Virus record (IMG/VR): IMGVR_UViG_2563366990_000004
DNA from: a virus
Lineage: Duplodnaviria; Heunggongvirae; Uroviricota; Caudoviricetes
DNA: 46,456 bases
Reading direction: 5' to 3' (one strand)
This document shows positions 12,644-13,874 of this stretch, piece after piece. How positions within the stretch are numbered: the first letter of the stretch is position 1; each line of letters opens with the position of its first letter. Made by a program: the position numbers and the translations under genes. The notes beneath the pieces are model-generated. The model made no database searches and was not told the DNA's origin. It saw nothing but the letters and a program-made list of their open reading frames with translations.

Positions 12644-13087
12644 ATGACCACTATTACCAAAGAGCGACTGCAATGGCTGGCTAACATTTCTGGCCGCGAT
12701 GACATTGACGATATAGACGGCGGTGAAATTCGTGAGCTGGCGCTTATCGCACTGGCATCGCTGGAAGCAGAACCGGTGGTTTACATGTGGGATAGCGAAA
12801 GAAAAGATATTGATGCTCCTGGGTATTATCGGACTGAGCATTTAGTGTTCGCTGAGAGTAGTGTTAAGCAATGGGGAGGGCGAGTTGTTCCACTTTACAC
12901 CGCCCCGCCAGCGCCGATAGTGCCAGCTGTTCTGGAACGTTTGCGAGCTATTGTAGCGGACCCACGCGCATTACCTCGCAGAAAAGAATGGGTTAGCGGG
13001 CAGCAGTACAGTTACGTACTTCTCGAAAACGTAGAAGCTATGGTTGATGAAGCCTGCCGCGCAGCCATGCTTCAGGGAGATAAATAA
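12644..13087 (+). CDS. Hypothetical protein (147 aa)
   Basis: Compact ORF, translationally coupled (ATGA overlap at 13087) to the next gene. Confidence 0.55.
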   Translation: MTTITKERLQWLANISGRDDIDDIDGGEIRELALIALASLEAEPVVYMWDSERKDIDAPGYYRTEHLVFAESSVKQWGGRVVPLYTAPPAPIVPAVLERLRAIVADPRALPRRKEWVSGQQYSYVLLENVEAMVDEACRAAMLQGDK

Positions 13088-13788
13088 TGATTAATCGAAC
13101 CAAACTGGAGCACATTCTCGAATATGCCAGGCAGCAGAAATGTATTGGGCAACTTTGTAAAATTCCACCAGGGGATATGGTTGAAATCATGGAGATTGCC
13201 ATGCGCAAGGCTGGCAACTCTCCGATAACTCAGGCTAGTCTGCCTGGCGGTTTCACCATTGAGGAGGCGAAGGAGTTACATGAAGACCTGGTGCGCAGCC
13301 ACATAAGCAAGGCTTTAAGTGGCGAAAAGATGAAGAAGAAGGATCTCGATGCTGATTTGTGCTGGATCCATGGGGTTATAGTCCAGGCATCCTGGTTTGT
13401 AAAAGCATCACTGGAGCAGAATGCGCTAACGGGTAACTCTCAGGTAATCCCTGATGACGGTCGCGAACAGTTTGAAACACTTATCAGGTTCCATGCAGAT
13501 GATAAAAACCATGAAACATTATTGCTTCGTGCTAACGAAGGGATGAATTACCGGGATCCAAATGTGGATTTGGCGTGGATATTCTGGAAATCCAGTCGAG
13601 AGCACATATTGCCGGGAAAAAGCGACAATAATCCAGCATTAGGCGATCAGGTGAGTGAATTAACTATGTTGGTCAAGCGATTAGCCAGTTCATTAAAAAG
13701 CGTCAATAAATCAAGCAAACTACCGGATAAAGCGATGGACTACCTGAAGCGAAACGGACTGATAAGCGCGGAGGATATTTTACGATGA
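13087..13788 (+). CDS. Hypothetical protein (233 aa)
   Basis: ORF with overlapping start; no family recognised. Confidence 0.55.
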   Translation: MINRTKLEHILEYARQQKCIGQLCKIPPGDMVEIMEIAMRKAGNSPITQASLPGGFTIEEAKELHEDLVRSHISKALSGEKMKKKDLDADLCWIHGVIVQASWFVKASLEQNALTGNSQVIPDDGREQFETLIRFHADDKNHETLLLRANEGMNYRDPNVDLAWIFWKSSREHILPGKSDNNPALGDQVSELTMLVKRLASSLKSVNKSSKLPDKAMDYLKRNGLISAEDILR

Positions 13789-13874
13789 CCTGGCCTGAGG
13801 CATTCGTGGCGGTAGGAATTGCAATGGCGGTGGCGCTGGTGCTGGTGGTGTATTCGATTTGCCGCTGGGGATAA
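13785..13874 (+). CDS. Possible 29-aa single-pass membrane peptide
   Basis: ATG 13785 overlaps the previous stop; product MTWPEAFVAVGIAMAVALVLVVYSICRWG is one hydrophobic helix. Below the track's size cut-off. Confidence 0.3.
   Translation: MTWPEAFVAVGIAMAVALVLVVYSICRWG

Follow-up and report, generated by a model that had tools for sequence, protein, structure and literature searches.

Two Mosaic Early Proteins and a Putative Coupled Membrane Microprotein in the Early-Right Operon of a Lambdoid Prophage

Introduction

Among the early accessory genes of lambdoid coliphages, ea22 of lambda is described as mosaic, prolysogenic and oligomeric, and DUF551 as a portable domain (PMC10834534, PMC7093339); the exo-xis region influences whether development is lytic or lysogenic (PMC10789677), and yfdQR, together with either yfdS or yfdT, inhibits initiation at oriC when present in multicopy (PMC4776307). 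Here, we analyse three overlapping open reading frames (ORFs), ORF1, ORF2 and ORF3, which occupy positions 12644-13874 of the IMG/VR virus record IMGVR_UViG_2563366990_000004 (Caudoviricetes); the window, in what follows, is this whole stretch of 46,456 nucleotides (nt). A first-pass annotation had regarded the ORFs as a coupled set without recognisable family, possibly an accessory module of the exclusion or abortive-infection type. The evidence collected here inclines, if only a little, towards another joint reading, in which ORF1 and ORF2 would be mosaic early accessory proteins that modulate the host, accompanied by a translationally coupled membrane microprotein, ORF3.

Coordinates and Junctions of the Three ORFs

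The block is organized as follows, all lengths being given in amino acids (aa):

12632-12637, plus strand: Shine-Dalgarno-like AAGGAG of ORF1, 6 nt 5' of the ATG, from direct sequence reading
12644-13087, plus strand: ORF1, 147 aa, an acidic (isoelectric point, pI, 4.8), soluble protein
13075-13089, plus strand: ORF1/ORF2 junction, with the Shine-Dalgarno GGGAG (13075-13079) followed by TAATG
13087-13788, plus strand: ORF2, 233 aa, predicted to be all-helical
13770-13788, plus strand: ORF2/ORF3 junction, with GGAGG (13770-13774) within the final ORF2 codons followed by ATGA
13785-13874, plus strand: ORF3, a putative single-pass membrane microprotein of 29 aa, MTWPEAFVAVGIAMAVALVLVVYSICRWG

The coordinates and the lengths of 147, 233 and 29 aa agree with the first-pass annotation, which had also placed an ATGA overlap between ORF1 and ORF2; at that point the sequence reads instead TAATG, where the ORF1 TAA (13085-13087) and the ORF2 ATG (13087-13089) have the final A in common, i.e., a 1-nt overlap. 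The ATGA belongs to the next junction, being formed by the ORF2 TGA (13786-13788) and the ORF3 ATG (13785-13787), and here the earlier description of a one-helix membrane peptide overlapping the ORF2 stop was borne out, by the ATGA at 13785-13788 and by a single hydrophobic helix. A Shine-Dalgarno-like sequence lies 6-10 nt 5' of all three starts (AAGGAG, GGGAG and GGAGG), and, together with the TAATG and ATGA junctions, these sequences support the translational coupling of the genes that had been proposed.

Cassette Structure of ORF1 and ORF2

In the Pfam scan, ORF1 and ORF2 had no match at E<=1; NCBIfam gave no usable match, ORF2 reaching only a chance level (12.5 bits versus a cut-off of 410), the PDB sequence search with the two proteins returned chance-level matches only, and no match was found in PADLOC-DB 2.0 for ORF1, ORF2 or ORF3 at E<=1. 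PHROG profiles, however, matched both: ORF2 corresponds to phrog_924 (5.7e-80), and ORF1 to phrog_60 (2.2e-22), phrog_5117 (1.8e-15) and phrog_660, all families of unknown function. The earlier statement that the proteins belong to no family one can recognise is correct as regards Pfam, NCBIfam and PADLOC, and not as regards PHROGs. The first sign of mosaicism came from phrog_660, whose profile aligns with aa 1-145 of ORF1 and also with aa 130-233 of ORF2. The DNA-metabolism families of the nin region (NinB, NinG, RusA etc.), which the earlier annotation had named as the assignment that would speak against its proposal, had no profile match in ORF1 or ORF2; RusA and DUF968 are encoded by separate genes downstream.

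From alignments with their relatives, the two proteins can be divided into cassettes:

ORF1, aa 1-45: leader, ending in IALASLEAEP
ORF1, aa 46-94: middle cassette, ending in LYTAPPAP
ORF1, aa 95-147: end cassette, ending in ACRAAMLQGDK
ORF2, aa 1-42: cassette B1
ORF2, aa 43-123: cassette B2
ORF2, aa 124-182: cassette B3
ORF2, aa 183-233: cassette B4

ORF1 is present, residue for residue identical, on 368 contigs and ORF2 is exact on 141, and database searches retrieved more than 1200 relatives for each of them, which match piecewise. Relatives of ~230 aa consist of ORF1 aa 1-145 with a C-terminal DUF551, others of ~195 aa join ORF2 aa 1-123 to DUF551, ORF2 aa 120-233 are also found behind unrelated N-termini, and single proteins of 293 aa fuse an ORF1-like part (aa 1-144) to an ORF2-like part (aa 43-233). 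When ORF2 was compared by phmmer with 1.84 billion cluster representatives, 457 clusters (50% identity) were retrieved at E<=1e-3, each covering one stretch of the protein (~1-49, 40-124, 117-180 or 164-233), with proteins ranging from 56 to 585 aa; DUF551 was detected in 18 of 89 representative ORF2 relatives, Ead_Ea22 in 7 (best E 1e-40) and a dATP/dGTP pyrophosphohydrolase domain in 2. The alignments revealed near-invariant short linkers between the variable cassettes, namely the MTTITKE start, IALASLEAEP(V), LYTAPPAP, ACRAAML and SGNSPV(I/T)P. The first linker is found in 161 of the 413 collected homologues; 17 leader types precede it, and 13 unrelated cassette types, one of which is a CxxC...CxxC zinc-ribbon-like insert, lie between it and the second linker. 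The species representatives matched in a scan of genome contigs with ORF1 were only E. coli and S. flexneri, a result that is uninformative on taxonomic breadth.

By sequence, ORF1 and ORF2 are two independent members of a mosaic family, made up of small accessory proteins that lambdoid coliphages encode in their early regions. It takes in lambda Ea22, the EaA/Ead-type proteins of P22 and DUF551 proteins such as CPS-53 YfdS, and YfdT probably belongs to it as well. The family could be catalogued by an explicit grammar of cassettes and linkers, which also accounts for the failure of family databases on these proteins and for their repeated mis-annotation.

Some ORF1-like proteins and fragments are labelled “valyl-tRNA synthetase” in RefSeq and GenBank (L002 3675-4037; P0178, P0194), evidently a propagated mis-annotation.

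Selection and Recombination at Cassette Borders

Compared with homologues that are 91-97% identical, ORF2 has a ratio of nonsynonymous to synonymous divergence (pN/pS) of 0.21-0.32, which corresponds to purifying selection. Synonymous divergence (pS) is not uniform along the gene: versus the L015 copy it is 0 in B1-B3 and 0.29 in B4, and versus the L010 copy it is 0.20, 0.02, 0.03 and 0.29 in B1 to B4, respectively; such jumps between modules are a signature of intragenic recombination at module borders. In the linkers synonymous sites vary and the amino acids are kept, which indicates that they are constrained as peptides; the linkers are also good substrates for homeologous recombination, and recombination at or near them reassorts the cassettes, with the consequence that the same pieces are found in hundreds of different proteins. 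The relaxed homologous recombination reported for phage recombinases (PMC3945230, PMC2327257) fits this picture of module borders.

These data also bear on the proposal that the ORFs are evolutionary debris, i.e., recombination scars whose frames are open only through recent common descent. Debris would agree with the many relatives that are truncated, frameshifted or annotated as pseudogenes, and with the low confidence of the AlphaFold2 (AF2) models, in which ORF1 has a mixed alpha/beta fold with a predicted local distance difference test (pLDDT) score of 66.7, and ORF2, modelled from a 30-sequence alignment, reaches only 41.8, too poor for a fold search. However, purifying selection acts on ORF2 and on ORF3 (pN/pS 0.33), the linkers are kept as protein despite synonymous changes, intact copies occur in hundreds of contigs and in virulent phages, and the Shine-Dalgarno sequence is maintained together with the overlap geometry; with these observations the debris explanation is scarcely credible.

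Distribution of the Block and the Question of a Defence Module

The arrangement of ORF1 followed by ORF2 was found only in near-identical prophages (L006-L009, L015). A 94% identical ORF2 (P0001) lies behind a different gene of 121 aa in two loci (L010, L011), in others (L002, L016-L018) ORF2 is preceded by other genes, and 97 related loci show the ORF1 and ORF2 cassettes in over 30 different arrangements. In strain FHI_NMBU_11 the homologous block, which is pseudogenised, is located in the early-left region, after yfdP-yfdQ-yfdR homologues and an Ead/Ea22-like gene and 5' of xis-int. ORF1 and ORF2 are not obligate partners, and the co-occurrence check that had been suggested for the block failed to find the three ORFs conserved as a unit, given the other partners of ORF2, the shuffled arrangements and the many different genes that precede ORF3.

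Cassette proteins with a coupled ORF3 are present also in virulent Vequintavirinae (Avunavirus) phages, namely Av-05 (L096 1342-2081) and 24-2-1 (L014), and on P1-like phage-plasmids (L100, a 97-kb plasmid of strain FDAARGOS_497). The presence of relatives in virulent Avunavirus phages argues against a dedicated exclusion or abortive-infection module. The protein of phage Av-05 contains two tandem “PV(A/G)W...PLY” cassettes.

A superinfection-exclusion or abortive-infection role of ORF1-ORF2-ORF3, similar to that of the neighbouring toxin-antitoxin loci, was suggested by the position of the block, which adjoins hok/sok and parDE in a prophage that also carries higBA, by the small membrane peptide, which is a feature of some exclusion systems, and by the fact that in some relatives a different gene for a small membrane protein takes the place of ORF3. 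On the other hand, no component matches PADLOC, the components do not co-occur as a unit, the block has no promoter, terminator or distinct base composition of its own and is embedded in a repressed early operon, and its homologues occur in virulent phages and are frequently pseudogenised in complete genomes; a role of this kind is thus very improbable. What stands of the earlier proposal is the word accessory, taken loosely to mean that the genes are non-essential and vary greatly, whereas its defence part is disfavoured by the PADLOC result, the missing co-inheritance and the early-operon position. A discrete three-gene defence module was in turn ruled against by the same PADLOC result, by the shuffled partners, by G+C content and signals that are those of the operon, and by the virulent-phage relatives.

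The most serious alternative is of a different kind: the cassette proteins might be early anti-defence or host-takeover effectors, the reshuffling of their cassettes being the outcome of an arms race against the immunity or restriction of the host. Their place in the early operon and the extreme diversity of the cassettes are consistent with it, as are the relatives in virulent Avunavirus phages and on P1-like phage-plasmids, settings in which a defence of the prophage type would have little point, the acidity of ORF1 (pI 4.8) and of its 60-/61-aa neighbours at 11400-11760 (pI ~4.05), and the dATP/dGTP pyrophosphohydrolase domain to which some relatives are fused; the nuclear magnetic resonance (NMR) paper on Ea22 (PMC10834534) describes such an enzyme, from a phage, as an inhibitor of host restriction enzymes. 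However, no similarity to any known anti-defence protein was found, the pN/pS of 0.2-0.3 within the cassettes denotes ordinary purifying rather than diversifying selection, and lambdoid early regions are generally mosaic, so that an arms race is not needed; on these grounds counter-defence is considered unlikely.

ORF3, a Putative Membrane Microprotein Coupled to the Arrays

The norm of the ORF3 family is 27 aa, and the copy in the window has 29 aa because of an in-frame 6-nt tandem duplication, GCTGGT, at 13834-13845, which adds Leu-Val to the predicted transmembrane helix; the same allele without the duplication is found in L020 and L021. The peptide has a grand average of hydropathicity (GRAVY) of 1.55 and one hydrophobic helix, and its consensus is M-[T/S/N]-W-P-[E/D]-A-[F/I/L]-x-x-[V/L]-G-(hydrophobic)-[Y/F]-S-[I/V/L]-[C/F]-R-W-G, with G11 and A15 on one helix face. 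When the region was aligned from four other loci, ORF3 proved to be kept behind quite different upstream genes. By tblastn the peptide was found in 92 phage records, among them the Shiga-toxin phage 933W, VT2-Sakai and BP-4795, P1-like elements, and two virulent Avunavirus phages, Av-05 and 24-2-1. A scan of 5426 complete E. coli genomes found the ORF3 DNA in 1604 of them, with 2965 copies, 158 of which are on plasmids. Nevertheless, the gene is unannotated in every curated record inspected, including two RefSeq regions produced by the Prokaryotic Genome Annotation Pipeline (PGAP), sporadic GenBank entries label it “hypothetical protein”, and a full-text literature search for the peptide gave no match.

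Fourteen distinct ORF3 variants of 27 codons gave a pN/pS of 0.33, indicative of purifying selection: variable columns number 12, 10 and 21 at codon positions 1, 2 and 3, respectively, synonymous changes occur at conserved residues, and the stop interchanges between TAA and TGA. The coupling to the preceding gene was tested by scanning IMG/VR with an ORF3 pattern that leaves out the start codon. At the 80 independently found loci the start is ATGA in 77 cases and GTGA in 2, and it overlaps the upstream TGA by 4 nt in 78 of the 80. The last module of the gene 5' of ORF3 is DUF551 (...PQEVNQ), cassette B4 (...EDILR) or another one, and the GGAGG...ATGA arrangement is found in all 15 ORF3 DNA variants, behind at least five different upstream C-termini. 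The C-terminal tails of the upstream proteins are conserved largely because those codons are the ribosome-binding site of ORF3, and, with an A required as the first base of codon 2, residue 2 of ORF3 is limited to T, S or N. Judged from this conservation, ORF3 is a genuine, separate membrane microprotein gene, coupled to the gene that ends the array. A shared protein cluster had suggested that ORF3 is fused to 121-aa DUF551 proteins; this was a clustering artefact, those proteins being devoid of the peptide.

Type I toxins such as TisB, DinQ, ShoB and Ibs are small and hydrophobic, comparable to ORF3. The peptide might accordingly be a membrane-damaging toxin or a lysis-timing peptide (type I toxin-like or holin-like), possibly tied to hok, a proposal to which its size and hydrophobicity lend themselves; furthermore, hok lies within 700 nt downstream of ORF3 in 31 of 70 evaluable loci, and other small membrane protein genes occupy the same position. 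However, hok is absent in the other 39 of the 70 loci, i.e., in more than half, where the downstream contexts include DUF4222-xis-int (~18 loci) and at least 13 others, and in the window ORF3 is located upstream of the sok/hok transcript region defined by Rfam, which starts at 13916; these two facts indicate that ORF3 belongs to the arrays and not to hok. In addition, no Rfam RNA or antisense promoter overlapping ORF3 was found, Pfam returned no HOK_GEF match for it and only a sub-threshold DUF2970 (16.7 bits versus a cut-off of 27), and a potent toxin is hardly what a temperate phage would couple to an abundant early operon. Taken together, these points make a toxin or lysis-timing role improbable. 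The idea that ORF3 is part of the hok transcript or promoter region was also rejected, in view of the many contexts devoid of hok and of the codon-level selection.

Loss and replacement of ORF3 are both seen at the same junction. At the end of yfdT in K-12 CPS-53 (L003 8165-8185) the sequence coding ...QQEVK contains GAGGTGAAATAATAG, which is the Shine-Dalgarno context of ORF3, and both the ATGA and the peptide are gone; the lack of ORF3 in K-12 would explain its absence from the small-protein catalogues of this strain. In five loci (L019, L026-L029, ~4560-4900 in locus coordinates) ORF3 is replaced exactly at the ATGA junction, leaving ATG AAT ATT TAG, by an AT-rich insert that codes for a protein of 58 aa (59 aa in L019) with two hydrophobic segments (MKNALQFLFVAFWLF...FMAVMCIEYWR) and with its own ribosome-binding site. 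The position after the cassette arrays seems to collect small membrane protein genes.

Prophage Setting and Operon Context

The block is contained in the early-right operon of a lambdoid, Stx (Shiga toxin)-phage-like prophage, between the replication gene P and the antiterminator Q, as established by Pfam and Rfam. The main features of the prophage are the following:

750-1769, minus strand: integrase, placed by Pfam
2057-4495, minus strand: exonuclease VIII-like gene of the early-left region, 812 aa, with a RecE-type exonuclease VIII N-terminal region and a C-terminal Rv2179c-like 3'-5' exoribonuclease domain
5829-6538, plus strand: higBA, with HigB_toxin (2.1e-32) and a helix-turn-helix (HTH) antitoxin
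6585-6983, minus strand: repressor, followed by a cro-like gene and a YdaT-like gene
7831-9349: DnaT/DUF1376 and P replication genes
between P and ORF1: DUF1627, DUF4406, Ea22-like and DUF7167 genes
10675/10702-11304, plus strand: Ea22-like gene, Ead_Ea22 profile with 94.7 bits
12262/12298-12642, plus strand: Ead/Ea22-like gene, 114 aa from the GTG at 12298, Pfam PF13935 with E 1.1e-7 (33 bits versus a cut-off of 27)
13916-14241, plus strand: hok/sok, with the Rfam sok model (110.8 bits) at 13916-14088 and Hok (HOK_GEF, 4.3e-23) at 14086-14241
14763-15325, minus strand: parDE, with ParE (2.1e-9) and ParD (1.5e-7)
downstream of parDE: DUF968, RusA and then Q (17174-17995)

The Ead/Ea22-like gene at 12298-12642, which is called as a 114-aa protein also in the identical contigs L006-L009, has a GTGA overlap with the gene at 12062-12301, and its stop is located 1 nt 5' of the ORF1 ATG. 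ORF1-ORF3 are the tail of a coupled gene chain of ~3.5 kb and not an isolated pair. The vicinity of hok and parDE, reported for the block from the beginning, was found again, sok/hok lying directly 3' of ORF3 and parDE further downstream on the opposite strand. Near-identical arrangements occur in many draft E. coli genomes (L006-L009); among the complete genomes of the collection, none covers 80% of the block.

Promoters were sought by a crude consensus match, in which the sole plus-strand promoter-like site 5' of the ORF3 stop lies inside ORF1 and is at chance level, and a second site (14003-14032) falls within the hok/sok locus; the scan for terminator-like sites found none within 9300-14500. 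The G+C content of the block (0.44-0.52) is the same as that of the operon, versus 0.375-0.435 for the insert carrying the lipoprotein gene and parE. In these crude scans, none of the attributes of a moron (own promoter, terminator and distinct base composition) was found in the block. Its position between P and Q suggests that it should be transcribed from the repressed early-right promoter, and not in the lysogen.

The prophage carries three toxin-antitoxin loci: higBA, hok/sok and parDE. Between hok and parDE, on the minus strand (14348-14701) and in a low-G+C stretch (0.375-0.435), a gene codes for a predicted lipoprotein of 117 aa, with an N-terminal signal bearing a lipobox-like LVFAISGC and no Pfam family; this gene looks moron-like, and it looks a better candidate than ORF1-3 for a surface or exclusion function expressed in the lysogen. 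At 11400-11760, on the plus strand, overlapping tiny genes of the same coupled chain code for proteins of 60 aa (DUF7167) and 61 aa, which have a pI of ~4.05, a net charge of -14 to -15, and a composition of the kind found in DNA-mimic or anti-restriction proteins.

Proposed Function

According to the reading favoured here, ORF1-3 would be made after infection or induction, and not in the repressed lysogen; delayed-early expression from the repressed early-right promoter is suggested by the position of the block and by the absence of its own signals. ORF1 and ORF2 would most likely be small soluble adaptors, in which the helical leader may oligomerise, as the Ea22 coiled coil does, and partners from the host or the phage may be bound by the variable mini-domains so as to adjust early development, e.g., the lysis-lysogeny balance or the initiation of host replication; we infer this adaptor role by analogy with Ea22, the exo-xis region and yfdQRST. 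ORF3 would be made by termination-reinitiation, in step with the array, and would insert as a single helix, probably with the N-terminus out and the C-terminus in, as suggested by E5 near the N-terminus and R25 near the C-terminus. As G11 and A15 form a conserved GxxxA face, ORF3 probably acts by helix-helix contacts, either with itself or with an inner-membrane target.

Several observations weigh against this interpretation. Neither ORF1 nor ORF2 carries the Ead_Ea22 signature or a DUF551 profile match, and they use other leaders (MTTITKE... and MINRTKLE...); DUF551 itself has no known mechanism; the similarity with YfdT is marginal (pairwise BLASTP E 0.009 and 0.022). Confidence in the AF2 models is low (pLDDT 66.7 for ORF1 and 41.8 for ORF2), the function of the cassettes is proposed by analogy, and an internal promoter could be active in lysogens. 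ORF2 homologues are often broken in complete genomes, so that the genes are dispensable. For ORF3, the proposed topology, target and translation rest on conservation of the sequence.

A wider proposal, which we put forward tentatively and consider rather doubtful, is that the linker/cassette design represents a dedicated combinatorial architecture, used by temperate and virulent coliphages to obtain new early effectors against host targets or host immunity; in this proposal ORF3 would be a very common membrane microprotein of phages that had escaped notice until now and has an array-specific role, e.g., acting on an inner-membrane host protein or anchoring or timing the output of the array.

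As to the classification of the locus, ORF1 and ORF2 should not be counted as a candidate defence system, and belong with the mosaic early genes of the Ea22/DUF551 type, whose biology, including the tuning of lysis-lysogeny and Stx prophage induction in enterohaemorrhagic E. coli (EHEC), is still poorly understood. ORF3 adds to them a widespread, coupled and largely unannotated putative membrane microprotein, found in ~30% of complete E. coli genomes.

Comparison with Known Systems

Lambda Ea22 and the Ead/Ea22-like family (PF13935) resemble ORF1 and ORF2 in being early, dispensable and mosaic, their N-terminal part being conserved and their C-terminal domains exchangeable; the same coupled chain contains two true members (10702-11304 and 12298-12642), and ORF2 cassettes occur inside proteins bearing the Ead_Ea22 signature (7 of the 89 representatives). 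Unlike ea22, ORF1 and ORF2 of this prophage are located in the early-right (nin-type) region and not in the exo-xis region, and the prolysogenic role has been shown for Ea22 itself only. The relationship with DUF551 proteins (PF04448, e.g., YfdS of CPS-53) is similarly one of shared parts, since the commonest ORF1/ORF2 relatives consist of the same cassettes with a C-terminal DUF551; moreover, the DUF551 gene is frequently the one overlapped by ORF3.

YfdT of E. coli K-12 CPS-53 has the same leader-plus-linker design (MTTFTNKE...IALVSLEVEP), and one of its cassettes faintly resembles B3 of ORF2. Its gene follows yfdQ-yfdR-yfdS, next to the excisionase gene, which is the site occupied by the ORF1/ORF2 homologues in FHI_NMBU_11; however, the K-12 copy has lost ORF3, and the Shine-Dalgarno remnant GAGGTGAAATAATAG is left.

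With the small membrane proteins and type I toxins (Hok/Gef, TisB, MgtR-like), ORF3 shares a size of ~27 aa, one predicted transmembrane helix with a conserved face of small residues, and a short charged C-terminus. It differs from them in having no family match and no antisense RNA, in being independent of hok, and in its putative mode of expression, i.e., the ATGA coupling to a preceding gene for a soluble protein.

Finally, the linkers recall the boundary sequences of lambdoid modular evolution, as described in PMC3945230 and PMC2327257: in both cases the segments that can be exchanged lie between short conserved stretches, and divergence changes abruptly at their borders. In ORF1, ORF2 and their relatives, however, the boundaries lie inside coding sequence, on a sub-gene scale with cassettes of 40-80 aa, and they are conserved also as peptides, so that they are not merely sites of DNA crossover.

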